From: Eledone cirrhosa
Taxonomy: Eukaryota
Reading direction: 5' to 3'
DNA: 55,344 nucleotides
Assembly: GCA_964016885.1 (NCBI GenBank)
Contig: CAXHJY010000396.1
Span: forward strand, 1-55,344
Below, one piece after another: positions 3,872 to 47,749 of this stretch. Each line of letters opens with the position of its first letter. The stretch's first letter is position 1. The position numbers and the translations under genes were made by a program. The notes beneath the pieces were generated by a model. It did not search any database, was not told the origin of the DNA, and saw only the letters and a list, made by a program, of their open reading frames with translations.

Positions 3872-8584
<4,713 letters not shown>

Positions 8585-8706: not shown

Positions 8707-8749
8707 GTAACCTACGCGTTTCATTCTTATTAGAAATCTTCAGGATTAC
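8707..8749 (-). ncRNA. Type I hammerhead ribozyme (left arm)
   Basis: GUAAUC CUGAAGA U-UUCU-AAUA-AGAA-U GAAA CGCG UA GGUUAC: 6-bp stem I, palindromic stem III ACGCGU. Confidence 0.85.
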
Positions 8750-16589: not shown

Positions 16590-16790
16590 TTTACGGTGGA
16601 TTTGCAGTATCGGTTGAGGGTCGGACGCCATGCTTTGCAGCAAAGAGTTACGGCCCTTTGTGATCTGAGTTCAAATCACGCAGAGGTTAACTTTACCTTT
16701 CATCTTTATGGGGTCGATAAAATAAAGTACCAGTAATACACTGGAATAATTGCTGACCTTGTGCCAAAAGTAAAAACAATTATTAAACTT
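16590..16790 (+). mobile_element. tRNA-derived SINE (Octopus-type); further copies ~20820-20950, 21375-21510, 22615-22770, 23490-23630(-), 23980-24165, 24285-24435, 29150-29260(-), 29485-29695, 29735-29945, 32830-33005(-), 43215-43400, 43610-43835
   Basis: Shared core gagttcaaatcccgccgaggttaactttgcctttcatccttacggggtcgataaaataaagtaccag with B-box-like GTTCAAATC. Confidence 0.85.
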
Positions 16791-17211
16791 TACGAGACGC
16801 ATGCTGCTGTGAATATAAAATGTATTGACATGCCGATTATAGAGGCTGTCAGCTTTGCTATTTCCACGAGAATTTGTCAAAATACAATCTCGTTCTCTCT
16901 CTCTCTCTCTCCCTCACTCCCTCTCTTACCTTCTCTCCCCCCCCCCCCCCCTCTTTCTCTCCATCCGTCTGTATGTGAGAGAGAGAGAGTATTTGTGATT
17001 CAATTGCCTAAAAACAACTTTTTGTATTTTAGCGATTTAGAGATATTTAATGTTCTATATCATCTTACTTGTTTCAGCGGCCATGCTGGGGTACCGCCTT
17101 AATTTAATTGATCACATCGTCCTCTTCCCACCACTACATATTCATATTTTCAAGTCTAGTACTTATTTATCTATCTCTTTTTTATCGACTCTCCACTAAG
17201 TTACATGACCG

Positions 17212-17331
<120 letters not shown>

Positions 17332-17422
17332 CGAAGGAAATGTGGTAAGGAACCAGGTGGACCATAACGCACCAAAGTACTCAATACTTGAGGTAGTAGA
17401 GTGGGTAATAGGAACCAGTAAG

Positions 17423-17516
17423 ACCCCGACAGCTGAGCTCAAGCCGTTTCGACGGCTAATTCTGGACTAAATGAAAATTTATCCTGGTATTTAGATAGCC
17501 GATCTTCTCAAGGGGT
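17423..17516 (-). ncRNA. Type I hammerhead ribozyme, U3-A8 core variant (left arm)
   Basis: Mirror copy of 19565-19658. Confidence 0.75.
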
Positions 17517-19564
17517 AATTCCATATATGGTCAAAGTGATTGTCAAAAATCAGTAGTAATTCTGTGGTTGCAAATTAGTAGGGGAGATGGTGGCTAAACC
17601 TGCCAGTAGGAGAAAGAGGGGAGGGGGTGGAGTAGACCCAATCAAGCGTTGGTAGTGCCAGCTACAGCTGGGCATGAGGTCAAAGAAGATACAGGGGAGG
17701 GGGAGGGGGAGGAAGTCGGAACGGTAGGTAGAACAATGGGGGGTAGAAATAGGAAAGAAAAAATACTGAGAGTGAAGAAAAGCAAATAAGTGTAAAGAAA
17801 AAAGTAAAGTAAATTAAATTCTACGACCTAGGTGTCAAGCTATTGTTAGGCAAGAATAAGATAAAGAAAGAAAGAAAGAAGTAAATAAATAAATAAATAA
17901 AGAAATAAAGAAATAAGTAAGAGAACTAGGTGGGACGGATAAGGCAAGGACCCTTTTAAGAGGTATAAGTACGTAAATGATACGGTGACGGGTCAAGAAA
18001 AGGGGCCAAAATACTAAAGAGACTACCACGAAATAAACAATAAAGGTTTCCATCCCGGGCCAGCAACGACCCAGTGCAGCAAAGTGAACTTGTACGAGAT
18101 AATAATTCTGAGTCCCGAGAAAAATATATACTAATGCTAACTCTAAAAGATCTAAAACAAGCTACATGAAAGTTCGTACGAAATAAAGGTAGAATACGGA
18201 GAAATAAATTCAGAATCCACCCCGCCCAGAAGAAAAGCGAAGCAAGAAATACTGAAACGAAAAAATAAGGCATAAGTGCCACTAAGAAATATAGAGGGCA
18301 CAGAGAATAGTGGGAGCGGTCGGAAAGAGGGGGAAAGTATCCGGGGTCTAAGCCAACTGCTATAAAGGGCGGAGTCCGCCAAATCTATCAAAGACTAGGG
18401 GAGGGGGGGTACTAAGGCTACATGGGGCCAAAGGCAGCCTCGGGTGGGCGAGAAAAGACGCCGACAAAGGAGAAGAGCTGGGGTAGAAGGACAAGGGAGA
18501 GAGGGGGGGAGGAAATAAAGGAAGCGATAAAAGAATCTTTGTATTCTTTTATCGCTTCCTTTATTTCCTTCCCCCCTCTCTCCTTTGTCCTTCTACCCCA
18601 GCTCTTCTCCTTTGTCGGCGTCTTTTCTCGCCCACCCGAGGCTGCCCTTCGGCCCCATGTAGCCTTAGTACCCCCCCTCCCCTAGTCTTTGATAGATTTG
18701 GCGGACTCCGCCCTTTACAGCAGTTGGCTTAGACCCCGGATACTTTCCCCCTCTTTCCGACCGCTCCCACTATTCTCTGTGCCCTCTATATTTCTTAGTG
18801 GCACATATGCCTTATTTTTTCGTTTCAGTATTTCTCGCTTCGCTTTTCTTCTGGGCGGGGTGGATTCTGAATTTATTTCTCCGTATTCTACCTTTATTTC
18901 GTACGAACTTTCTTGTAGCTTGTTTTAGATCTTTTAGAGTTAGCATTAGTATATATTTTTCTCGGGACTCAGAATTATTATCTCGTACAAGTTCACTTTG
19001 CTGCACTGGGTCGTTGCTGGCCCGGGATGGAAACCTTTATTGTTTATTTCGTGGTAGTCTCTTTAGTATTTTGGCCCCTTTTGTTGACCCGTCACCGTAT
19101 CATTTACGTACTTATACCTCTTAAAAGGGTCCTTGCCTTATCCGTCCCACCTAGTTCTCTTACTTATTTCTTTATTTCTTTATTTATTTATTTATTTACT
19201 TCTTTCTTTCTTTCTTTATTTTATTCTCGCCTAACAATAGCCTGACACCTAGGTCGTAGAATTTAATTTACTTTACTTTTTTCTTTACACTTATTTGCTT
19301 TTCTTCACTCTCAGTATTTTTTCTTTCCTATTTCTACCCCCCCATTGTTCTACCTACCGTTCCGACTTCCTCCCCCTCCCCCTCCCCTGTATCTTCTTTG
19401 ACCTCATGCCCAGCTGTAGCTGGCACTACCAACGCTTGATTGGGTCTACTCCACCCCCTCCCCTCTTTCTCCTACTGGCAGGTTTAGCCACCATCTCCCC
19501 TACTAATTTGCAACCACAGAATTACTACTGATTTTTGACAATCACTTTGACCATATATGGAATT

Positions 19565-19658
19565 ACCCCTTGAGAAGATCGGCTATCTAAATACCAGGAT
19601 AAATTTTCATTTAGTCCAGAATTAGCCGTCGAAACGGCTTGAGCTCAGCTGTCGGGGT
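19565..19658 (+). ncRNA. Type I hammerhead ribozyme, U3-A8 core variant (right arm)
   Basis: acccc TTGAGAA ga(t)cggcta-[loop with ctaaat/atttag]-tagccgtc GAAA cggc-ttgagctca-gctg TC ggggt; predicted cleavage after C19653. Confidence 0.78.
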
Positions 19659-19693
19659 CTTACTGGTTCCTATATATATATATATATATATAT

Positions 19694-19909
19694 GTAAGTA
19701 TAGCAACACAACAGTTAGTTCACCATACCGAGAACAACTGTTTCACCTTAAGCGGTCAACCATGACCAGTCCGAGCTGAAGATCCGCCTAAGATGAAACA
19801 ATTGTTCTCGGTATGGTGAACTAACTGTTGTGTTACTACTTCTACCAAACTCGTCCCATGGACTGATTGCTCTACTACTACGGATATAACCCTCCAGTGT
19901 TCTACCCCC

Positions 19910-19965: not shown

Positions 19966-19973
<8 letters not shown>

Positions 19974-20312
19974 ATACTTTGGGAGGGTCATGTTGCCAAT
20001 AAGAAACACACACACCAGTTGTGCCCCTCCTTTGTTCTGTCCTACGCCATCAAACAACATGGCGTAGGAGAGAACAAAGGAGAGGCACAAAAACAAAAAA
20101 AAAGAAAAGAATCCCCAATCACTGAAGAGGTCACAGAATGTGTGACAAATAACTTTGACAATATATAAACAACCATCTGGTTGTGGAACCAACCAACCAA
20201 CCGGAAATTTATAAATTCCTAATTTTATAAATTTATTATAATAAATTGAAGTGAAAGCAACTGGTGCGTGTGTTTCTTATTGGCAACATGACCCTCCCAA
20301 AGTATAACAATA
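19966..20312. repeat. Inverted repeat pair (~55-bp arms, ~235-bp spacer) between (TA)n runs
   Basis: tattgttatactttgggagggtcatgttgccaataagaaacac versus gtgtttcttattggcaacatgaccctcccaaagtataacaata. Confidence 0.8.
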
Positions 20313-20626
20313 TCGGTTTCAACACACGTTTTCAGATAAAGAATCTTGCTAAACAAATTCAGAAACGAAATATATATATATATATATATATAAGAATAAG
20401 AGGAAAGGAAGGGGACCACAGTTAAATAAAATACTCAATACATTAGTAGGGCGGGCACATATTTATTTCATATAGAATGACATTATATATAAATATATAT
20501 AGTGTATTGGTATGTAATGCTTAGTCGCAAATGATTCACCCGTTTCAGCTCTCAATGCTATTATTTGTGTCAGGCTACCGATGTGGGGTTCTGCATTTGT
20601 TGCTACACCATAGTCGGTATCCTTAA

Positions 20627-20709: not shown

Positions 20710-20959
20710 GCGTGTACAAACATGATGATGTTATATCGATATTTCGTTCCTGCTCATAATGCACTGGGATAATTGTTGGCCTTGTGCCTAAAGTAGAAAT
20801 AATAATTATTATCAAATACCGTCGAGGTTAGCTTTGCTTTTCATCGTTACGGGGTCGATAAAATGAAGTACCATAGATGCACTAGGGTCGATTTAATCGA
20901 CTTTCCCCTCACCCGTATTGCTGGCCTAGTGCCTAAAGTAGAAATGATTATTATTTTAC

Positions 20960-23974: not shown

Positions 23975-24529
23975 GTCTAGGGTGATGAATTGGCACAATC
24001 GTTAGAACTTCGGAAAAAATACCCTGCCGTTCCTTACGTTCTGAGTTCAAATCCCGCCGAGGTAAACTTTACCTTTCATCCTTACGGGGATCGATAAAAT
24101 AAAGTACCAGTAACGCACTGTGGTAATTGCTGGCCTTGTGCCAAAAGTAGAAACAATTATTATAACCATGACGAGACAAATTTGCCTTTTATGTTTCTGG
24201 GAGCAACACACTGGTGTCGATGTAATCGACTTACACCCCCCCCCCCCTCAATTGCTGGCCATATGTCAACATTTGAAATATTATTGATTGGCAGAATCGG
24301 TAGAACGTCGGACAACTTGCTTAGCGGCATAGAGTTATGGCGCTATAAAGTGCCAGACACGCACTGGGGTCGATTTAATCGACTTTCCCCTCCCCCATAA
24401 TTGTTGTCCTTGTGCCTAAATCAGAAACCCTCATTATAACCACAACTTGCTGTGATAGTGAAAATATTGAGCATATTACCTTATTGTTTACATATGTTTT
24501 AAGTATTAATCTAATCTAAACTCCAAAGT

Positions 24530-28427: not shown

Positions 28428-30495
28428 CAGGAATAACTAGACAGGAAAAATTGGTCAGGAGGAGAAATTTATTGAGTGTTCATTCTTTAACATATGTTTC
28501 TGTACAATATCTGTCTACATGCGCTGACTGCAAATTCCATGTTTATATAACTCGTTGGGCTGTGTAAGTGGTTGAGTATGTATGTGTGTATATCTGTGAT
28601 GTCCGAACGAGTATCCTCCACCTCCAACTAACCTACACTCCGCCTCATGGACTCGGCCAACAGGATGGAGAATAAATTGCCTTGGAGAACGGTGAGGGAT
28701 AGGCACTTGAACAGCCACTCCACATCGTGGGGCTTGCACTTGCGGGCAGCCAACTCTGCTCCTATAACAGTGAGCAGGGATGAAGGTCTGAGAGATCTTT
28801 TCTCTTATTTCCTATCTTTTTTCTGTATATTTGTTTTTCGTGAGGTTTGATATTTCTGTATAATTAGCTGATAGAGTACTCAATCTTCTCCACAATTAAT
28901 GTAAATGCTGCATAGATTATTAAGTTTAACACAGTGATATTGATGTTTGGGTTTCAGAGTATGTATGGTCCCGTAACACTTTATAGAGTCGTAGGGGTGC
29001 CATATTGACATACGGCGTTTCTTGGGCATTTTTAAAGCCTGACAGAGCCCATCTCTCTCCAGGCCTGAGTTCAGTAGATTTCTTCCAATGAAAGATAGAA
29101 AGTGAGAGAGGGGAAATAAGAAAGAGATATGGATGAACAATCGACGCCAGTACTAGACTGGTACCTTTTTTTATCGAGCTCGAAAGGATGAAAGGTACAG
29201 GAACGAATATCATACAGCATTCTTATCCGGCATTTTAACGACTCTGCCAATTCGCCGCCTATGGGTTTCACAGTATATATACTAAATTCGTTAGTCCACT
29301 GTTACATCTAGATTCGGAATAGTGCCCTCTAAATTCTATGAGTATATTCTTACAGTTTCGTTTTGGTAGTAGTCTCCATGCAAAATATGTATATACTCCT
29401 TTGATCTATTTATGTCTTTTCTGTTTTATAAACTCATAATTTAGATTGACATCATTTTTGTGATTACAGGTGTTGTTATTATCATTGGCAGTATCGGTAG
29501 AGCGTCAGACGCCATGCTTTGTAGCATAGGGGTTATGGCCCTTTACATTCTGAGTTCAAATCCCGCCAGGTTAAATTTTCCTTTCATCCTTACGGGGTCG
29601 ACAAAATAAAGAACCAGTCACGCACTGGGGTCGATTTAATCGACTTCCCCCTTACCCCAAATTGCTGGCCTTGTGCCTATATAAGAAACTATTATCATTA
29701 TTATTATTATTATTGTCATTTCTTGGATGCTAATAAGGGCGGTGGATCAGCAGTTTCCGTAAAACGTCGGACGACACGCTTTGTGCGTAGAGTTACGTCC
29801 TTTTACGTTCTGAGCTCAAAGTTAGCTTTGCTTTTCATCCTTACGGGTCCTACAAAATAATGTACCAGTAACGCACTGGGGTCGATTTAATCGACATTCC
29901 CCTCTCCCGAATTTGATAGCCTTATACTTAAACCAGAAACCATTGAGGATGAGTAATTTTGTGTTTTGGTGCACGACGGACGACTATTGAGTCGGCTCCG
30001 ACAAAATTAGATTATCACCAAGTTTTACTGGATGTATTCTTTCTTTTCTGACTTATTTTGCAAACAGGAGATTGCGAAACGTTTGGACGTCTATATCAAT
30101 ACCTGGAGTGGATAAAAAATATGATTTTCGGACGTATTGTATTTTTGATTTCGTGTTTATATTTATTTCAATATGACTTCTCGCAGTTGAAAAGCGAGAA
30201 TGAACACCAATGAGACTAGAATGAGAACAAATACGAGGTTCGGATGAAAGATTCATAAGCTGACAAAGATACTCTCATGGAATGACTACCAATGAGACTA
30301 GAATGAAAACAAATACGATGAGAAACACTGCTTTAGAGCTTCCTTCAACTGTTCTTTTGAGCGCAATTGGAAATCCCCATCTTCGTTCATATAACTGAGG
30401 CATAGTGTTTCTCAATTTTTCCTTCCTTGTGGCCAAATTTTGGATTCAAAACAATTTCAGTCTAAATTATGTTTTAAATCAATTTAAAAATATAA

Positions 30496-31896: not shown

Positions 31897-33148
31897 TTTA
31901 TAATAAGGAGAAAGCATCGAAAATTTAATTTAGATAGTTTCTGAATTATTATCCTTTAAAAATAAAGTAAACCAGTTTGTGTTTTCATAATTTTACGCCT
32001 GTGGAAAAAAATAGAATTTCAAAGCCCACCTATTTTTGTTGGGCCAGCCAACTCCTGGCCCATTTAAAAAATGTCTCGGCCCACTTGAGAGCCTAATGGC
32101 CTAGGTTTAGAACCACTGCTCTTACGGACATATTTAACTCTATTTCTCCTGTTAAACAAAACAAGGTATATGTGAGAATATGCATAATCTTGCGAACAGG
32201 TAATGCTGGTGCGACACACAATCTCACAAAACTGACTTAAACACACAGAACAAGGTCACACTGAGTAACATTTGTAGTGACGTTAGACGTTAGCTTGTTA
32301 CCTTTGTGTGGCAGTGTAGACAGGAGGTGAGTACTGAAATAATGTGTTTGGGTGGCATGTGTTTGGGTGGGATGTACATGGATATGCATGTCCTAGTGAC
32401 CTCTGAATTCACGAAGCTATACTCCATTGTGGGTGCAAAAAGAGAGTTGATAGAATTGGTTGTGTAGGGAAAAAATAACAGTTGTTATAGTCGTGAAAAT
32501 TAACAATCTCTTGAGAGTTTTCTGGTCTAAGGAGCTGAAAAAGGCAGAGAAGGTGAAAAGGAACACATGCTTCAAAAACAACAACGCATCCCAGAAGCCG
32601 CTGTTTTCATAGCACCACCAACCACTTCACTAGTCCCACCACCAACTCCACAATCTGTTGCACAACCAAATGCACCTCAAGTTACACCACTAGTTGCAAC
32701 TCCAAGGACAGCGAAATAAATCGCTTTGTCCTTACTGTCAAAGGCCGACAACCAGGGATCACCTCTCCTAGTCACAACCACAATAATGGTTTCTGATTTT
32801 ATACCACAAGACCAACAATTTTTGGATAGGGAATGTCGACTAAATCTACCCCAGTTTCACACTGGTACTTTATTTTATTGCCCTCGTAAGGAAAAAGGCA
32901 AAGCTAACCTCGGTGGGATTTGAAATTAGAACGCAAAGGAACGTACTCTATGCTGCGAGGTATGGTGTCCGATGCTCTACCGATTACTACCAATCACCGC
33001 CCTTATTGTTTTGCAATAATGAGGAGGGGGTGGAGAATGAACAGCGGTGGACAACTTCCACTGCTCTCCAAAATACAAGCAGAAAGTGAGGAGAAGCTTG
33101 TCTCTTTTTAGGGCTGTATGAAGACCTTCGAGTAACCAACGATATATG

Positions 33149-33525: not shown

Positions 33526-36500
33526 ATAGTGATGACCAGTTTATAGTGATGACCAGTTTATAGTGATGACCAGTTTATAGTGATGACCAGTTTATAGTGA
33601 TGACCAGTTTATAGTGATGACCAGTTTATAGTGATGACCAGTTTATAGTGATGACCAGTTTATAGTGATGACCAGTTTATAGTGATGACCAGTTTATAGT
33701 GATGACCAGCTTATAGTGACGACCAGCTTATAGTAATGACCTGTTTATAGTGATGACCAGCTTATAGTGACGACCAGTTTATAGTGATGACCAGTTTATA
33801 GTGATGACCAGTTTATAGTGATGACCAGTTTATAGTGATGACCAGCTTATAGTGACGACCAGCTTATAGTGACGACCAGCTTATAGTGATGACCTGTTTA
33901 TAGTGATGACCAGTTTATAGTGATGACCTGTTTATAGTGATGACCAGCTGATAGTGATGACCAGTTTATAGTGATGACCAGCTTATAGTGACGACCAGCT
34001 TATAGTGATGACCAGTTTATAGTGATGACCAGCTTATAGTGATGACCAGTTTATAGTGATGACCAGTTTATAGTGATGACCAGCTTATAGTGATGACCAG
34101 TTTATAGTGATGACCAGTTTATAGTGATGACCTGTTTATAGTGATGACCAGTTTATAGTGATGACCAGCTTATAGTGATGACCAGTTTATAGTGATGACC
34201 AGTTTATAGTGATGACCTGTTTATAGTGATGACCAGTTTATAGTGATGACCAGCTTATAGTGATGACCAGTTTATAGTGATGACCAGTTTATAGTGACGA
34301 CCAGCTTATAGTGATGACCTGTTTATAGTGATGACCAGCTTATAGTGATGACCAGTTTATAGTGATGACCAGTTTATAGTGACGACCAGCTTATAGTGAT
34401 GACCTGTTTATAGTGATGACCAGTTTATAGTGATGACCAGCTTATAGTGATGACCTGTTTATAGTGATGACCAGTTTATAGTGATGACCAGTTTATAGTG
34501 ATGACCAGCTTATAGTGATGACCAGCTTATAGTGATGACCAGTTTATAGTGACGACCAGTTTATAGTGCTGACCAGCTTATAGTGACGACCAGCTTATAG
34601 TGATGACCTGTTTATAGTGACGACCAGCTTATAGTGATGACCAGTTTATAGTGACGACCAGCTTATAGTGACGACCAGCTTATAGTGCTGACCAGTTTAT
34701 AGTGATGACCAGTTTATAGTGATGACCAGTTTATAGTGATGACCAGTTTATAGTGATGACCAGTTTATAGTGACGACCAGCTTATAGTGACGACCAGTTT
34801 ATAGTGCTGACCAGTTTATAGTGATGACCTGTTTATAGTGATGACCAGTTTATAGTGATAACCTGTTTATAGTGATGACCAGCTTATAGTGCTGACCAGT
34901 TTATAGTGCTGACCAGTTTATAGTGATGACCAGCTTATAGTGATGACCAGTTTATAGTGATGACCAGTTTATAGTGATGACCAGCTTATAGTGACGACCA
35001 GCTTATAGTGATGACCTGTTTATAGTGATGACCAGCTTATAGTGATGACCAGTTTATAGTGATGACCAGTTTATAGTGATGACCTGTTTATAGTGATGAC
35101 CAGTTTATAGTGATAACCTGTTTATAGTGATGACCAGCTTATAGTGATGACCAGATTATAGTGATGACCAGTTTATAGTGATGACCAGCTTATAGTGATG
35201 ACCTGTTTATAGTGATGACCAGCTTATAGTGATGACCAGTTTATAGTGATAACCTGTTTATAGTGATGACCAGCTTATAGTGATGACCAGCTTATAGTGA
35301 TGACCAGATTATAGTGATGACCAGTTTATAGTGATGACCAGCTTATAGTGATGACCTGTTTATAGTGATGACCAGATTATAGTGATGACCTGTTTATAGT
35401 GATGACCAGTTTATAGTGATGACCAGTTTATAGTGATGACCAGCTTATAGTGATGACCTGTTTATAGTGATGACCAGATTATAGTGCTGACCAGTTTATA
35501 GTAATGACCTGTTTATAGTGATGACCAGCTTATAGTGATGACTAGTTTATAGTGATGACCTGTTTATAGTGATGACCTGTTTATAGTGATGACCAGATTA
35601 TAGTGATGACCAGCTTATAGTGATGACCAGCTTATAGTGATGACCAGCTTATAGTGATAACCAGATTATAGTGATGACCAGTTTATAGTGATGACCAGCT
35701 TATAGTGATGACCAGCTTATAGTGATGACCAGTTTATAGTGATGACCAGTTTATAGTGATGACCAGTTTATAGTGATGACCAGCTTATAGTGATGACCAG
35801 CTTATAGTGATGACCAGTTTATAGTGCTGACCAGCTTATAGTAATGACCAGTTTATAGTGATGACCAGCTTATAGTGATGACCAGTTTATAGTGATGACC
35901 AGCTTATAGTAATGACCAGTTTATAGTGATGACCAGTTTATAGTGATGACCAGTTTATAGTAATGACCAGTTTATAGTGATGACCAGATTATAGTGATGA
36001 CCAGTTTATAGTGATGACCAGCTTATAGTGATGACCAGTTTATAGTGATGACCAGTTTATAGTGATGACCAGCTTATAGTAATGACCAGTTTATAGTGAT
36101 GACCAGTTTATAGTGATGACCAGCTTATAGTGATGACCAGATTATAGTGATGACCAGTTTATAGTGATGACCTGTTTATAGTGATGACCTGTTTATAGTG
36201 ACGACCAGTTTATAGTGACGACCAGCTTATAGTGACGACCAGTTTATAGTGACGACCAGCTTATAGTGATGACCTGTTTATAGTGATGACCAGTTTATAG
36301 TGATGACCAGTTTATAGTGATGACCAGCTTATAGTGATGACCAGTTTATAGTGATGACCAGTTTATAGTGATGACCAGCTTATAGTGATGACCTGTTTAT
36401 AGTGATGACCAGTTTATAGTGATGACCAGTTTATAGTAATGACCAGTTTATAGTGATGACCAGTTTATAGTGATGACCAGCTTATAGTGATGACCAGTTT

Positions 36501-39500
36501 ATAGTGATGAGCTGTTTATAGTGATGACCAGTTTATAGTGATGACCAGCTTATAGTGATGACCAGCTTATAGTGATGACCAGTTTATAGTGATGACCAGT
36601 TTATAGTGATGACCAGCTTATAGTGATGACCAGTTTATAGTGATGACGAGATTATAGTGATGACCAGTTTATAGTGATGACCAGTTTATAGTGATGACCA
36701 GTTTATAGTGATGACCAGTTTATAGTGATGACCAGCTTATAGTGATGACCTGTTTATAGTGATGACCTGTTTATAGTGACGACCAGTTTATAGTGCTGAC
36801 CAGTTTATAGTGACGACCAGCTTATAGTGATGACCAGTTTATAGTGATGACCAGATTATAGTGATGACCAGTTTATAGTGATGACCAGTTTATAGTGATG
36901 ACCAGTTTATAGTGATGACCAGCTTATAGTGATGACCAGATTATAGTGACGACCAGCTTATAGTGATGACCAGTTTATAGTGATGACCAGATTATAGTGA
37001 CGACCAGTTTATAGTGATGACCTGTTTATAGTGATGACCAGTTTATAGTGATGACCAGTTTATAGTGATGACCAGTTTATAGTGATGACCAGTTTATAGT
37101 GACGACCAGCTTATAGTGATGACCAGTTTATAGTGATGACCAGATTATAGTGACAACCAGTTTATAGTGATGACCTGTTTATAGTGATGACCAGTTTATA
37201 GTGACGACCAGTTTATAGTGATGACCAGCTTATAGTGATGACCAGTTTATAGTGATGACCAGATTATAGTGACGACCAGTTTATAGTGATGACCAGCTTA
37301 TAGTGATGACCAGTTTATAGTAATGACCAGATTATAGTGACGACCAGTTTATAGTGATGACCAGCTTATAGTGATGACCAGCTTATAGTGATGACCAGTT
37401 TATAGTGATGACCAGTTTATAGTGATGACCAGCTTATAGTGATGACCAGTTTATAGTGATGACCAGATTATAGTGATGACCAGTTTATAGTGACGACCAG
37501 TTTATAGTAATGACCAGCTTATAGTGATGACCTGTTTATAGTGATGACCAGTTTATAGTGACGACCAGTTTATAGTAATGACCAGCTTATAGTGATGACC
37601 AGTTTATAGTGATGACCAGATTATAGTGACGACCAGTTTATAGTGATGACCAGTTTATAGTGATGACCTGTTTATAGTGATGACCAGTTTATAGTGACGA
37701 CCAGTTTATAGTGATGACCAGTTTATAGTGATGACCAGCTTATAGTGATGACCTGTTTATAGTGATGACCAGCTTATAGAGATGACCAGTTTATAGTGAT
37801 GACCAGTTTATAGTGATGACCAGTTTATAGTGATGACCTGTTTATAGTGACGACCAGTTTATAGTGACGACCAGTTTATAGTGATGACCAGCTTATAGTG
37901 ATGACCTGTTTATAGTGATGACCAGCTTATAGTGATGACCAGTTTATAGTGATGACCAGTTTATAGTGATGACCAGTTTATAGTGATGACCAGTTTATAG
38001 TGATGACCTGTTTATAGTGATGACCAGTTTATAGTGATAACCTGTTTATAGTGATGACCAGCTTATAGTGATGACCAGCTTATAGTGATGACCAGATTAT
38101 AGTGATGACCAGTTTATAGTGATGACCAGCTTATAGTGATGACCTGTTTATAGTGATGACCAGATTATAGTGATGACCTGTTTATAGTGATGACCAGTTT
38201 ATAGTGATGACCAGTTTATAGTGATGACCAGCTTATAGTGATGACCTGTTTATAGTGATGACCGGATTATAGTGCTGACCAGTTTATAGTAATGACCTGT
38301 TTATAGTGATGACCAGCTTATAGTGATGACCTGTTTATAGTGATGACCTGTTTATAGTGATGACCAGATTATAGTGATGACCAGCTTATAGTGATGACCA
38401 GCTTATAGTGATGACCAGCTTATAGTGATGACCAGATTATAGTGATGACCAGTTTATAGTGATGACCAGCTTATAGTGATGACCAGCTTATAGTGATGAC
38501 CAGTTTATAGTGATGACCAGTTTATAGTGATGACCAGCTTATAGTGATGACCAGCTTATAGTGATGACCAGTTTATAGTGCTGACCAGCTTATAGTAATG
38601 ACCAGTTTATAGTGATGACCAGCTTATAGTGATGACCAGTTTATAGTGATGACCAGTTTATAGTAATGACCAGTTTATAGTGATGACCAGTTTATAGTAA
38701 TGACCAGTTTATAGTGATGACCAGATTATAGTGATGACCAGTTTATAGTGATGACCAGCTTATAGTGATGACCAGTTTATAGTGATGACCAGTTTATAGT
38801 GATGACCAGCTTATAGTAATGACCAGATTATAGTGATGACCAGTTTATAGTGATGACCAGCTTATAGTGATGACCAGATTATAGTGATGACCAGTTTATA
38901 GTGATGACCTCTTTATAGTGAAGACCTGTTTATAGTGACGACCAGTTTATAGTGACGACCAGCTTATAGTGACGACCAGTTTATAGTGACGACCAGCTTA
39001 TTGTGATGACCTGTTTATAGTGATGACCAGTTTATAGTGATGACCAGTTTGTAGTGATGACCAGCTTATAGTGATGACCAGTTTATAGTGATGACCAGTT
39101 TATAGTGATGACCAGTTTATAGTGATGACCAGCTTATAGTGATGACCAGTTTATAGTGATGACCAGTTTATAGTAATGACCAGTTTATAGTGATGACCAG
39201 TTTATAGTGATGACCAGCTTATAGTGATGACCAGTTTATAGTGATGAGCTGTTTATAGTGATGAGCTGTTTATAGTGATGACCTGTTTATAGTGACGACC
39301 AGTTTATAGTGATGACCAGCTTATAGTGATGACCAGCTTATAGTGATGACCAGCTTATAGTGATGACCAGTTTATAGTGATGACCAGCTTATAGTGATTA
39401 CCAGCTTATAGTGATGACGAGATCATAGTGATGACCAGTTTATAGTGATGACCAGTTTATAGTGATGACCAGCTTATAGTGATGACCAGCTTATAGTGAT

Positions 39501-41936
39501 GACCAGTTTATAGTGATGACCAGCTTATAGTGACGACCTGTTTATAGTGATGACCAGTTTATAGTGATGACCAGTTTATAATGATGACCAGTTTATAGTG
39601 ATGACCAGTTTATAGTGATGACCAGCTTATAGTGACGACCTGTTTATAGTGATGACCTGTTTATAGTGACGACCAGTTTATAGAGCTGACCAGTTTATAG
39701 TGACGACCAGCTTATAGTGATGACCAGTTTATAGTGATGACCAGATTATAGTGATGACCTGTTTATAGTGATGACCAGCTTATAGTGATGACCAGTTTAT
39801 AGTGATGACCAGTTTATAGTGATGACCAGTTTATAGTGATGACCTGTTTATAGTGATGACCAGTTTATAGTGATGACCTGTTTATAGTGATGACCAGCTT
39901 ATAGTGGTGACCAGCTTATAGTGATGACCAGATTATAGTGATGACCAGTTTATAGTGATGACCAGCTTATAGTGATGACCTGTTTATAGTGATGACCAGT
40001 TTATAGTGATGACCAGTTTATAGTGATGACCAGTTTATAGTAATGACCAGTTTATAGTGATGACCAGTTTATAGTGATGACCAGCTTATAGTGATGACCA
40101 GTTTATAGTGATGAGCTGTTTATAGTGATGACCTGTTTATAGTGACGACCAGTTTATAGTGATGATCAGCTTATAGTGATGACCAGCTTATAGTGATGAC
40201 CAGCTTATAGTGATGACCAGTTTATAGTGATGACCAGCTTATAGTGATGACGAGATCATAGTGATGACCAGTTTATAGTGATGACCAGCTTATAGTGATG
40301 ACCAGCTTATAGTGATGACCAGTTTATAGTGATGACCAGCTTATAGTGACAACCTGTTTATAGTGATGACCAGTTTATAGTGATGACCAGTTTATAGTGA
40401 TGACCAGTTTATAGTGATGACCAGCTTATAGTGACGACCTGTTTATAGTGATGACCTGTTTATAGAGCTGACCAGTTTATAGTGACGACCAGCTTATAGT
40501 GATGACCAGTTTATAGTGATGACCAGATTATAGTGACGACCAGTTTATAGTGATGACCTGTTTATAGTGATGACCAGTTTATAGTGATGACCAGTTTATA
40601 GTGATGACCAGTTTATAGTGATGACCAGTTTATAGTGACGACCAGCTTATAGTGATGACCAGTTTATAGTGATGACCAGATTATAGTGACGACCAGTTTA
40701 TAGTGATGACCTGTTTATAGTGATGACCAGTTTATAGTGACGACCAGTTTATAGTGATGACCAGCTTATAGTGATGACCAGTTTATAGTGATGACCAGAT
40801 TATAGTGACGACCAGTTTATAGTGATGACCAGCTTATAGTGATGACCAGTTTATAGTAATGACCAGATTATAGTGACGACCAGTTTATAGTGATGACCAG
40901 CTTATAGTGATGACCAGCTTATAGTGATGACCAGTTTATAGTGATGACCAGTTTATAGTGATGACCAGCTTATAGTGATGACCAGTTTATAGTGATGACC
41001 AGATTATAGTGATGACCAGTTTATAGTGACGACCAGTTTATAGTAATGACCAGCTTATAGTGATGACCTGTTTATAGTGATGACCAGTTTATAGTGATGA
41101 CCAGTTTATAGTAATGACCAGCTTATAGTGAAGACCAGTTTATAGTGATGACCAGATTATAGTGACGACCAGTTTATAGTGATGACCAGTTTATAGTGAT
41201 GACCTGTTTATAGTGATGACCAGTTTATAGTGACGACCAGTTTATAGTGACGACCAGTTTATAGTAATGACCAGCTTATAATGATGACCAGTTTATAGTG
41301 ATGACCAGATTATAGTGACGACCAGTTTATAGTGATGACCAGCTTATAGTGATGACCAGTTTATAGTGACGACCAGTTTATAGTGATGACCAGCTTATAG
41401 TGATGACCAGTTTATAGTGATGACCAGCTTATAGTGATGACCAGCTTATAGTGATGACCAGCTTATAGTGATGACCAGCTTATAGTGATGACCAGCTTAT
41501 AGTGATGACTAGTTTATAGTGATGACCAGCTTATAGTGATGACCAGTTTATAGTGATGACCAGATTATAGTGATGACCAGTTTATAGTGATGACCAGTTT
41601 ATAGTGCTGACCAGCTTATAGTGATGACCATCTTATAGTGATGACCAGTTTATAGTGATGACCAGTTTATAGTGATGACCAGTTTATAGTGATGACCAGT
41701 TTATAGTGATGACCAGCTTATAGTAATGACCAGTTTATAGTGATGACCTGTTTATAGTGATGACCAGTTTATAGTGATGACCTGATTATAGTGATGACCA
41801 GCTTATAGTAATGACCAGCTTATAATGATGACCAGCTTATAGTGATGACCAGCTTATAGTAATGACCAGCTTATAGTGATGACCAGTTTATAGTGATGAC
41901 CAGCTTATAGTAATGACCAGTTTATAGTGATGACCA
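33526..41936. repeat. 17-bp tandem satellite (atagtgatgaccagttt), about 495 copies
   Basis: Constant 17-bp period with recurrent point variants; 8411/17 is about 495. Confidence 0.98.
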
Positions 41937-43000: not shown

Positions 43001-44283
43001 TCATATTCATATGAACTTGGAGTTACATAAAGACTTCTTTATTTTCGATCGTTGTTTATCAATATGTTATAGTTGTTTGTCCTGCTTAAAGGAACACAAA
43101 ACCAATACATCTCCAACCCACTCTCGTTTTAATTCATTTATGTTTGTTTGCCATTCTGGACAGTGTGATAAACACACCTCTCTCCACTGACTTTCATTTT
43201 ACATCTATTATTTACTGGATTGGCAGTATCAGTAGAGGGTCGGACGCCATGCTTTCCAGCATAGTTACGTCCCTTTACGATCTGATTTCAAATCCCGCCG
43301 AGGTTAACTTTGCCTTTCATCCTTACGGGGTCGATAAAATAAAGTACCAGTAATGCACTGGTAGTTTGCTGGCCTTGTGCCTAAAGTAGAAACAATTATT
43401 TACTCTCTATCATTTGACAGTCTTCTATTTCCATGCTGTCGTGTTAACGTGACAGCAAGAAAATACACATTACTAATTATTATATATCGTTTCTTATGGC
43501 GGTGGATTAGCAGAAGCAGTAGAGCATCAGACAACATGCTTTGCGGCTTTGATTACAGGTGTTGTTGTTATTATCATTATTATTATCATTATCATCTTTT
43601 GGATGCTAATAAGGGCGGTGGATTGACAGTATCGGATGAGCATCGGACAACACGCTTTGCGGCATAGAGTTACGTCCTTTTACGTTCTGTGCTCAAATCC
43701 CGCCGAGGTTAGGGTTGGCTTTCATCTTTACGGAGTCGATAAAATAAAGCACCAGTAAAGCACTGGGGTCTATTTAGTCGACTTTCCCGTCCCGCAGAAT
43801 TGTTGGCCTTGTGCCAGAATCAGAAACCATTATATATAGTTATTTTTTAACTATGACCAGTTTTAGGTTTAGTTTTCAAATTAGGGATAAGATTGGGTTC
43901 ATATATATATAAGTAACGTTTAATTTGATTGCAGTAGAGATATTATTAGAAAGTCGCTACTTTTAAAATGAAAACACTGGCTAGTTTAGACTGAGATGAT
44001 ACTAGAGATAAGATGTGGAGAGGGAGTATTAAGACTGTGATTAAATCTTGCTACCGATACAATATTGTTGTGTAAGAAAATTGAGATGGGAAGAAATGGA
44101 ATTGGTTTACCACTTTTAAGAATGGCATCGTTTCCAGGAATGATTTCATAAACAATGATATTCTTTGAAATATACGCTTCCTGTTTCAACGTCTGTTTAA
44201 AGTATTACTTTGTAAAGTAATATAAAAAGTGTTTCACATAAACATATACACACAAATAAACATACATACACACACGCACACAC

Positions 44284-44576: not shown

Positions 44577-44642
<66 letters not shown>

Positions 44643-44645
<3 letters not shown>

Positions 44646-44828
44646 AACAAGTATGACCCCGACGGCAGAGCTCAAGCCGTTTCGACGGCTAATTCTGGAC
44701 TCCAGAATTAGCCGTCGAAACGGCTTGAGCTCTGCCGTCGGGGTCTTCCTATTACCCACTCTACTACCCTAAGTATTGAGTACTTTGGTGCGTTATGGTC
44801 CATCTGGTTCCTTACCACATTTCCTTCG

Positions 44829-44830
<2 letters not shown>
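44643..44830. mobile_element. Short fold-back copy of the 17331-19670 family (3' half of HHR only)
   Basis: Palindrome centred at 44700; tail ending ccacatttccttcgtt matches the 17331 end; flanked by (TA)n. Confidence 0.9.
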
Positions 44831-44864
<34 letters not shown>

Positions 44865-45161
44865 TGAAACAAAATGAAAACGAAATTTCATTTCTCACTC
44901 TTAGTATGGCACTTACTTAAATGTAAGTATGCATGTATACGTACATACATATATGTATACAGACGTACAGTAGCATGCACATATATATATATATATACAT
45001 ATATATATACATATGCATACAGGTACACATACATATATGCACGTATCAGTTTAGCGGCGCTAACGTCGCTTTGTTCGTTTGTAAACAAACTGAACAGCCT
45101 GAATTAATGCCATACGGTGTTAAGGCAACCACGTCACCTTTTTGTTCAACACTGACACAGG

Positions 45162-45206
45162 AACGATGTACGAGTTTCAAGCTTGTTAGCTATCATCAGC
45201 ACCGTT
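45162..45206 (-). ncRNA. Minimal type I hammerhead ribozyme, unit 1
   Basis: AACGGUG CUGAUGA U-AGCU-AACA-AGCU-U GAAA CUCG UA CAUCGUU; 7-bp stem I; stem III palindrome broken by one change. Confidence 0.85.
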
Positions 45207-45279
45207 TACCCATCTGCCAGATAGTTGAACGTTCGAAAGTATATACTTTCCTTATGAAAATTAACGGCTGAGCAGCCTA

Positions 45280-45287
45280 ATTTGCAT
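45280..45287. promoter_or_regulatory. Octamer motif ATTTGCAT (also 45746-45753, 46212-46219)
   Basis: Exact octamer ~75 nt upstream of the HHR on the ribozyme strand in every unit; function inferred only. Confidence 0.4.
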
Positions 45288-45627
45288 ATTGAGTGAGTTA
45301 AATCGGTCAGGCATACCGAAAACGATAAATTGAAACAAAATGAAAACGAAATTTCATTTCTCACTCTTAGTATGGCACTTACTTAAATGTAAGTATGCAT
45401 GTATACGTACATACATATATGTATACAGACGTACAGTAGCATGCACATATATATATATATATACATATATATATACATATGCATACAGGTACACATACAT
45501 ATATGCACGTATCAGTTTAGCGGCGCTAACGTCGCTTTGTTCGTTTGTAAACAAACTGAACAGCCTGAATTAATGCCATACGGTGTTAAGGCAACCACGT
45601 CACCTTTTTGTTCAACACTGACACAGG

Positions 45628-45672
45628 AACGATGTACTAGTTTCAAGCTTGTTAGCTATCATCAGCACCGTT
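45628..45672 (-). ncRNA. Minimal type I hammerhead ribozyme, unit 2
   Basis: As unit 1 but with palindromic stem III ACUAGU. Confidence 0.9.
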
Positions 45673-46093
45673 TACCCATCTGCCAGATAGTTGAACGTTC
45701 GAAAGTATATACTTTCCTTATGAAAATTAACGGCTGAGCAGCCTAATTTGCATATTGAGTGAGTTAAATCGGTCAGGCATACCGAAAACGATAAATTGAA
45801 ACAAAATGAAAACGAAATTTCATTTCTCACTCTTAGTATGGCACTTACTTAAATGTAAGTATGCATGTATACGTACATACATATATGTATACAGACGTAC
45901 AGTAGCATGCACATATATATATATATATACATATATATATACATATGCATACAGGTACACATACATATATGCACGTATCAGTTTAGCGGCGCTAACGTCG
46001 CTTTGTTCGTTTGTAAACAAACTGAACAGCCTGAATTAATGCCATACGGTGTTAAGGCAACCACGTCACCTTTTTGTTCAACACTGACACAGG

Positions 46094-46138
46094 AACGATG
46101 TACTAGTTTCAAGCTTGTTAGCTATCATCAGCACCGTT
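46094..46138 (-). ncRNA. Minimal type I hammerhead ribozyme, unit 3
   Basis: Identical to unit 2. Confidence 0.9.
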
Positions 46139-46654
46139 TACCCATCTGCCAGATAGTTGAACGTTCGAAAGTATATACTTTCCTTATGAAAATTAACGGC
46201 TGAGCAGCCTAATTTGCATATTGAGTGAGTTAAATCGGTCAGGCATACCGAAAACGATAAATTGAAACAAAATGAAAACGAAATTTCATTTCTCACTCTT
46301 AGTATGGCACTTACTTAAATGTAAGTATGCATGTATACGTACATACATATATGTATACAGACGTACAGTAGCATGCACATATATATATATATATACATAT
46401 ATATATACATATGCATACAGTGTCAGTGTTGAACAAAAAGGTGACGTGGTTGCCTTAACACCGTATGGCATTAATTCAGGCTGTTCAGTTTGTTTACAAA
46501 CGAACAAAGCGACGTTAGCGCCGCTAAACTGATACGTGCATATATGTATGTGTACCTGTATGCATATGTATATATATATGTATATATATATATATATATG
46601 TGCATGCTACTGTACGTCTGTATACATATATGTATGTACGTATACATGCATACT

Positions 46655-47713: not shown

Positions 47714-47749
47714 TCTTAACGTTTCGGACGCTAGTCCTTCATCAGAAGA
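47714..47749 (-). ncRNA. Minimal type I hammerhead ribozyme
   Basis: UCUU CUGAUGA A-GGAC-UAGC-GUCC GAAA CG UU AAGA; palindromic AACGUU. Confidence 0.8.

Follow-up and report, generated by a model that had tools for sequence, protein, structure and literature searches.

A large U3-A8 hammerhead motif in a Penelope-like retrotransposon (Hydra clade) of Eledone cirrhosa, and the history of its 3-8 pair

The window analysed here, the whole 55,344-nucleotide stretch of contig CAXHJY010000396.1 from Eledone cirrhosa, contains a 2.3-kb inverted pair at 17331-19670, embedded in (TA)n, whose two arms are 98.9% identical. A type I hammerhead motif sits at the end of one arm, and an identical copy, overlooked in an earlier note on this DNA, lies on the opposite strand (Table 1). 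A short palindromic insertion of the same family is found further along the window. The earlier note had compared stem III of this 44.7-kb relative with that of the hammerhead; the relative turned out to be a palindrome of the 3' half alone, lacking UUGAGAA, the 5' core.

Table 1. Features of the window (positions in the 55,344-nt stretch)
Feature	Position	Strand	Remarks
Type I hammerhead motif, U3-A8 core (main finding)	19565-19658	+	Sequence, descriptor scan, fold
5' core, positions 3-9, UUGAGAA	19570-19576	+	U3 = 19570, G7 = 19574, A8 = 19575
Stem I strands	19565-19569 with 19654-19658	+	
Stem II	19577-19630	+	G10.1-C11.1, A-U, bulge, CGGCUA/UAGCCG, internal loop, distal helix; unbranched
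Stem II distal helix	19597-19604 with 19609-19617	+	Outer pairs P about 0.9
Putative Initiator-like hexamer within stem II	19611-19616	+	Overlaps the genome-wide 5'-end hot spot, 31-43 nt upstream of the predicted cut
G12-A13-A14, stem III, loop III, U16.1, C17	19631-19653	+	GAAA at 19631-19634; C17 = 19653
Loop III 6-nt palindrome	19641-19646	+	
Competing hairpin that pairs the 3' strand of stem II to the 5' strand of stem III	19624-19639	+	Masks GAAA; folding, RNAalifold
Plus arm, 3' UTR/pLTR of Penelope-like element	18518-19670	+	Ends 17 nt past the cut site, in (TA)n
Opposite (minus) arm of this inverted pair	17331-18536	-	Ends 97 nt past the cut site, in (TA)n (80-nt tail)
Second hammerhead copy, identical	17423-17516	-	Descriptor scan
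Short palindromic insertion, same family	44641-44829		Centred near 44701, ending at +17 and about +90; carries just the 3' half of the ribozyme
Minimal hammerheads of other families	8707-8749, 45162-45206, 45628-45672, 46094-46138, 47714-47749	-	C3-G8
SINE-like repeat copies	16590-16798, 20757-20958, 24028-24177, 29484-29944, 32783-33007, 43211-43838		

The motif contains the conserved members of the hammerhead core, namely U4, G5, A6 and N7, A9, G12, A13 and A14, the A15.1-U16.1 and G10.1-C11.1 pairs and H17, and its 3-8 pair is Watson-Crick (U-A) in the window copy. The core UUGAGAA, stems I and III, the CGGCUA/UAGCCG helix, GAAA, and GUC with C17 at 19653 can all be read directly in the sequence, just as the earlier note described them; the predicted cut lies 3' of C17. 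Stem III comprises five base pairs, one of them G-U, and loop III nine nucleotides. The minimum-energy fold of the window motif is a three-way hammerhead junction with stem I open. Stem II had been described as branched, with a nested ctaaat/atttag helix; this helix has a pair probability of about 0.01, compared with about 0.9 for a different distal helix, and although 65% of its cells are paired across copies, 293 of 500 shuffles reach as high, so that covariation is absent.

A descriptor scan of both strands returned this motif and its minus-strand copy, and nothing more. Rfam gave no hammerhead match, either at the gathering score or at E<=10, as expected from the variant core and long stem II; the prediction that standard searches would miss this family was therefore correct. 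Rfam matches to miRNA families fell on the adjoining palindromes, below their gathering scores, and were rejected.

The window holds other repeats, some with hammerhead-like motifs of their own. Directly after the main motif, a second, older palindromic insertion (19701-19838, arms 82% alike) probably represents another Penelope-like family. One of its arms carries, at about 19771-19812, a small hammerhead-like motif that has C3-G8 and a weak stem II; the exact pattern of this motif had no match besides the window copy. A further descriptor scan located five canonical C3-G8 type I motifs of other families on the minus strand, three of which occur once per unit in a 466-bp tandem repeat at 44859-46420, either retrozyme-like or a local duplication. 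This descriptor missed the 19565-19658 motif on account of the stem II bulge, and its null of 0.125 matches per 31 kb is therefore not valid for that motif. An element at 19966-20313 has 56-bp inverted ends, an inner hairpin (20019-20090) and a decayed hammerhead-like motif at about 20120-20165, similar to those at two other loci (L068 and L078). At 4382-7533 on the minus strand, a non-LTR retrotransposon, whose endonuclease and RT frames measure 291 and 570 aa, lies inside long (TA)n; copies of its 3' end recur at 243-359 and 1521-1647. Also present are an 8.4-kb satellite at 33526-41936, built of a 17-bp unit (247 copies at a reported period of 34), and a dispersed SINE-like repeat of 150-250 bp, with many copies that are 77-90% alike.

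The 1.2-kb arm of the window is found elsewhere in the 3.0-Gb genome of this animal after an RT/GIY-YIG ORF. The unit measures 3,531 bp and carries an intact 716-aa RT/GIY-YIG ORF at other genomic sites; one locus holds about 4.5 such units head to tail, with 99.97-100% identity and an intact ORF in each, plus an inverted arm. The hammerhead recurs once per unit, and downstream of its predicted cut site 193 nt precede the AUG of the ORF that follows. Insertions of the family have (TA)n targets and show pLTR, tandem and inverted arrangements. One cluster of these insertions encloses a GIY-YIG fragment (L017:6924-7298) from another Penelope-like family.

In the encoded protein, the RT (YRDD at 347) is followed by a C-terminal GIY-YIG domain (GIY-YIG-like at 590-607). 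DKT replaces DKG, GxKF/Y is absent, and the N-terminal RWK motif is present as RWR at 36. A CxCX5C linker is located at 571, with CxxC at 669 and CxH at 697 around the E and N residues, and without CX2-5CxxC. Pieces of the ORF matched no RT or GIY-YIG family in Pfam and nothing in the PDB. The 101 candidates, of 90,026, that were scored in a protein search were all 95-100% identical and stop-free, and relatives at about 40% identity are frequent in public data (2,205 of 8,000 scored). Based on these motifs and on a comparison by eye with published Hydra-clade proteins, which look similar to the 716-aa ORF, we assign the element to the Hydra clade of Penelope-like retrotransposons; the hammerhead motif lies in its terminal repeat (pLTR). 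A Naiad or Chlamys element was ruled out by the domain order, without an N-terminal endonuclease or a DKA motif. A non-LTR retrozyme was likewise rejected: the unit is coding and 3,531 bp long rather than a short non-coding tandem, and the window copies form an inverted pair.

The likeness to the Hydra-clade elements described by Craig et al. (2021; PMC8557442) extends from the protein, with its C-terminal GIY-YIG, DKT, CxCX5C, CxxC and CxH and no GxKF/Y, to the insertions, with (TA)n targets, inverted and tandem arrangements, a one-sided tail and a type I hammerhead near the 3' end. RWR in place of RWK also occurs in Hydra-1_Crog from the same work. The Eledone element differs in its unit size (3.5 kb, against generally under 3 kb in the clade) and in its tail (80 nt, against the 30-40 described for PLEs). 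The ribozymes differ as well: while 26 of 26 Hydra rows in File S2 of that paper are C3-G8, the loop on stem II being short and loop III only 1-3 nt long, the Eledone element has U3-A8 or C3·A8, a 54-nt stem II and a 9-nt loop III with a 6-nt palindrome.

Exact genome-wide counts in one common context were 5,853 for U3-A8, 2,026 for C3·A8, 58 for U3·G8 and 14 for C3-G8, with 0 for the reversed-pattern control of each of the four classes. The contrast of 5,853 copies of the core context with 0 for its reversed pattern excludes chance. A longer pattern reaching to GAAA gave 5,807, 1,781 and 47 matches, the last against 33 in the control. The 3-8 pair is Watson-Crick in 5,867 of the 7,951 exact matches; the 2,026 with the C3·A8 mismatch form several successive amplifying subfamilies, and the reading of the pair as compensatory and fixed thus does not pass the check that the earlier note itself proposed. 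In 100 copies retrieved without specifying the 5' core, hand counts gave U4 100, G5 98, A6 100, A8 100, A9 99 and G10.1 96, whereas position 7 was any base (G 63, C 13, A 12, U 12) and position 3 was U in 76, C in 23 and G in 1; core differences besides positions 3 and 7 were singletons only. Accordingly, of the two bases that had been expected to be fixed across the family, A8 is and U3 is not. Hand counts also placed G7 in 94 of 100 listed C3·A8 copies versus 52 of 100 listed U3-A8 copies, an association that is only suggestive, the subfamilies being few and related. A C3-G8 sister subfamily within the recent family was considered and rejected: the 14 C3-G8 and 58 U3·G8 copies amount to 0.7% and 1.0% of their parent classes, and since G8 copies bear the diagnostic sites of their parents, they resemble single post-insertion mutants.

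Selection was assessed in 18 insertions, a change being counted when common to two or more copies. Shared changes were found at 0 of 14 core positions and at 3 of 46 positions of core, stems and palindrome, compared with 52 of 165 fourfold sites (p 0.011 and 0.0005); the distal stem II loop had 11 in 37, second codon positions, to which the 3 of 46 comes close, 23 in 386, and the loop III palindrome 0 in 6. In the nine C3·A8 insertions alone, core, stems and palindrome had 0 of 46 against 19 of 165 at fourfold sites (p 0.016), while the core by itself (0 of 14, p 0.37) showed no significant constraint. Judging from these substitution patterns, the core, stems and loop III palindrome are under purifying selection. 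When the hammerhead structure was laid on 30 copies, 83% of cells were paired, versus 22-45% when it was slid, and the G10.1-C11.1 pair was present in 30 of 30; double changes occur in stems I and II in the old relatives, and none in stem III. Most loci in this sample were retrieved by core-containing patterns, and the covariation counts are inflated by related copies, kinship being disregarded by the shuffle control. The RNAalifold consensus did not recover the three-stem hammerhead and had the competing hairpin as its sole helix. The hammerhead reading of the earlier note is therefore supported by topology, by the free position 7, by a G10.1-C11.1 pair that does not vary and by the purifying selection acting on the core as well as the stems, but its compensatory pair and its branched stem II are not supported.

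The order of the core changes was examined in an ORF tree of 1,162 columns and 23 natural copies, with which a shorter 31-row tree agrees. The young U3-A8 clade, which includes the subfamily of the window (support 100/100), is nested in a ladder of C3·A8 subfamilies, and older U3-A8 subfamilies lie near the base. A single origin of U3-A8 was rejected by the AU test (10 rows versus 13, p 3.5e-44). Old relatives in the same genome, with ORF pieces 57% and 52% identical, are canonical C3-G8, as are three of eight metagenome loci, all one motif, with proteins 36-37% identical. Together with the tree, the C3-G8 state of the old relatives indicates that the departure from C3-G8 is old, that A8 was fixed afterwards and that position 3 switched at least two times. 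The direction of the first position-3 switch would follow from the rooting, and the tree does not settle the root among the oldest A8 subfamilies. In the youngest subfamily, the 3-8 pair is restored and the predicted probability of the three-stem fold is the highest, at 0.58-0.65, versus 0.02-0.43 in the 10 other copies, older subfamilies included.

A chance resemblance or an assembly artefact could be suspected from the fold, the stability of which is on a par with shuffles (non-significant z of -0.5 and -1.0), and from the source, a 55-kb contig rich in microsatellites. However, there are thousands of copies on large contigs at a fixed place in an intact retroelement, the core is under selection and canonical relatives exist. 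These observations refute such an explanation, to which we give next to no credence.

The ends of the insertions provide information about the template of reverse transcription. Among 179 distinct 3' ends, 90 lie within 25 nt past the cut (64 at +17) and 69 at +85 to +110 (57 at +97), while 16 run on, 4 lie elsewhere and none is at the cut itself. Inverted pairs with both ends scored mostly combine one short and one long end. The longer subfamilies are represented by only 61 copies in the analysis of inverted arms. The arms of one insertion in G000 inverted pairs (e.g. C1:20843850 with 20844233; C1:132893188 with 132894456) often differ by an apparent 8-nt micro-inversion of the stem II distal loop, which suggests hairpin-linked template switching during integration. 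For 5' ends, 400 kb were sampled at round coordinates: of 34 arms, 25 start at -31 to -43 from the cut and no arm starts less than 10 nt away from it; a complete ribozyme is present in one. Extrapolated from these 400 kb, half-ribozyme arms like that at 44.7 kb would number on the order of 100,000 genome-wide. Elsewhere, 7 of 237 5' ends fall at the cut, no excess over adjacent bins. Since there is no pile-up of 5' ends at the cut, linear cleaved RNA is not the main template, and since insertions run across the cut site, the templates must be continuous there, whether circular, multimeric or uncut. Such continuity fits the cleavage-and-ligation model put forward in PMC4209133; the cleavage predicted by that model is not proven by it. 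A public RNA run yielded one 200-nt contig, outside the hammerhead motif.

The 5' stop coincides with a hexamer in stem II that is kept across subfamilies while its pairing partners change. This hexamer is Initiator-like. It may serve as a transcription start, and a structure-induced stop of the reverse transcriptase is the alternative. A related model, in which RNA starts at -41 and the reverse transcriptase jumps via the terminal repeat, is disfavoured: the whole upstream ribozyme is present in 32 of 43 AUG-bearing copies and one copy starts at -40, that is, 1 of the 33 long AUG-bearing copies, most of which were chosen for a long open frame.

From the identity of the element, its geometry, its copy counts and selection, we infer that the motif likely self-cleaves the element transcript after C19653, at a modest rate. 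The explanation that we favour, and consider somewhat probable, is that a slow self-cleaving ribozyme processes the element RNA to unit length, while ligation or incomplete cleavage supplies the template. Cleavage of tandem or pLTR-flanked precursors would yield unit-length RNA, which would be re-ligated or often remain uncut. Reverse transcription would take its primer from nicked (TA)n a little downstream of the junction and proceed across it, and this passage would generate partial tandems and arrays. A slow core (U3-A8, sometimes C3·A8) and the competing hairpin would be tolerated or even favoured, because the template must survive uncut during reverse transcription.

The C3·A8 mismatch is expected to cripple hammerhead cleavage, and G8A by itself strongly lowers activity; the amplification of about 2,000 copies carrying C3·A8 is therefore a counterpoint to the self-cleavage reading. 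The core pair in question is C3-G8 (PMC3884650), and the parts of PMC2920678 and PMC3884650 consulted here give no rates for 3-8 variants. One way of accommodating the mismatch would be that the lineage had a working hammerhead without a Watson-Crick 3-8 pair, a new natural core in which the partner of C3 may have been G7, through a shift in register, or A8 in protonated form. This proposal, made because G7 was held during the C3·A8 phase, is speculative and on balance doubtful. If it is true, the genome would preserve a dated series of C3-G8, U3-A8, C3·A8 with G7 and again U3-A8, and a retrotransposon would tune its own ribozyme down, protecting the template of reverse transcription.

Another possibility would be that a largely inactive hammerhead is retained as an internal promoter, with a start about 41 nt upstream of the old cut, and as a priming or stop signal for the reverse transcriptase, and that position 3 drifts because catalysis has become irrelevant. 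Such a role would account for the long C3·A8 phase with ongoing amplification, the concentration of 5' starts on the conserved Initiator-like hexamer, the lack of ends at the cut site and the conserved competing hairpin, and it has a precedent in the internal Inr/DPE promoter of the Drosophila virilis Penelope pLTR (PMC2377424). However, the stretch upstream of the start contains U4, G5, A6, A9, G10.1 and the 5' strand of both stem I and stem II, all of them fixed although N7 takes any base, and the pairs of stems I and II have double changes in the old relatives. The Watson-Crick 3-8 pair in most copies and in the youngest clade, and the scarcity of starts at -40 among AUG-bearing copies extending past the cut, also argue against an inactive hammerhead, which we regard as rather unlikely.

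The palindrome of loop III raises the question of dimers. In the old relatives (L194, L195, L197 and L202), the palindrome of the loop (19639-19647 in the window) is flanked by two A and one A, a layout that a retroviral kissing-loop dimerisation site also has. The ribozyme could act mainly as a dimer through loop III pairing, or in trans, with half-ribozyme RNAs from about -41 as substrate strands, and dimerisation could deliver two templates to two target ends, which would explain the inverted pairs. The palindrome is free of shared changes and persists in old C3-G8 relatives, a stem III self-duplex is predicted at -26 kcal/mol versus -5 for the hairpin, and metazoan PLE hammerheads have been described as dimeric with a palindromic loop 3 (PMC4209133). 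On the other hand, folding predicts that the monomer already has the 5-bp stem III (P 0.85), as in the fungal PLE ribozymes that are active as monomers (PMC4209133). Moreover, the arms of one insertion frequently cluster in a tree of 80 of 171 copies, and one template fits as well as two. We therefore consider a mainly dimeric or trans-acting ribozyme improbable and retain the slow self-cleaving ribozyme as the preferred reading.

U3-A8 by itself is ordinary. Natural U3-A8 variants, arising by covariation from C3-G8, were reported by Perreault et al. (2011; PMC3088659) and stated to be active in vitro, in agreement with the earlier note's claim that U3-A8 retains activity. The section on variants in that paper names no C3·A8, and its figures S6 and S7 may bear on the point. 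In Penelope-like elements, U3-A8 is also known: the Cercyon PLEs of Schistosoma mansoni (Cervera and de la Pena 2014, PMC4209133) carry this core in the terminal repeat in more than 1,000 copies, with about 1,300 matches. These reports remove any novelty from U3-A8 as such. However, the Cercyon hammerheads are minimal, with almost no helix III, and belong to another PLE family, and the main text of that paper mentions no mismatch lineage. The non-LTR retrozymes (PMC7229834; bioRxiv 10.64898/2026.07.22.740005) likewise carry a type I hammerhead once per tandem unit, and cleavage with ligation to circles has been proposed as the source of their template, but they are short non-coding tandem repeats, unlike the Eledone family, an autonomous element plus truncated arms. 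A literature search that covered mainly papers outside subscription turned up no account of a C3·A8 lineage in nature; this scope is too narrow to establish absence from print, and supplements may bear on it. The novelty lies in a large U3-A8 hammerhead for the Hydra clade and in a mismatch phase that succeeded and whose history can be read.

To conclude, our work describes a young, autonomous and very abundant family whose natural variants of the catalytic 3-8 pair form an allelic series, for which both the order of the subfamilies and the number of copies are available. The function of PLE hammerheads has been called unclear, and the status of a parasite allowed for them, by Craig et al. (2021; PMC8557442). 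For the mechanism of PLE integration, the family supplies base-level landmarks in its fixed ends, at +17 and +97, and in the stop near -40. The roughly 2,000 copies with a mismatched pair would amount to a natural test of the use of the ribozyme to the transposon. Cleavage rates of the four natural variants would tie the speed of the ribozyme to the success of transposition and reveal whether a core with a mismatch can work in nature.
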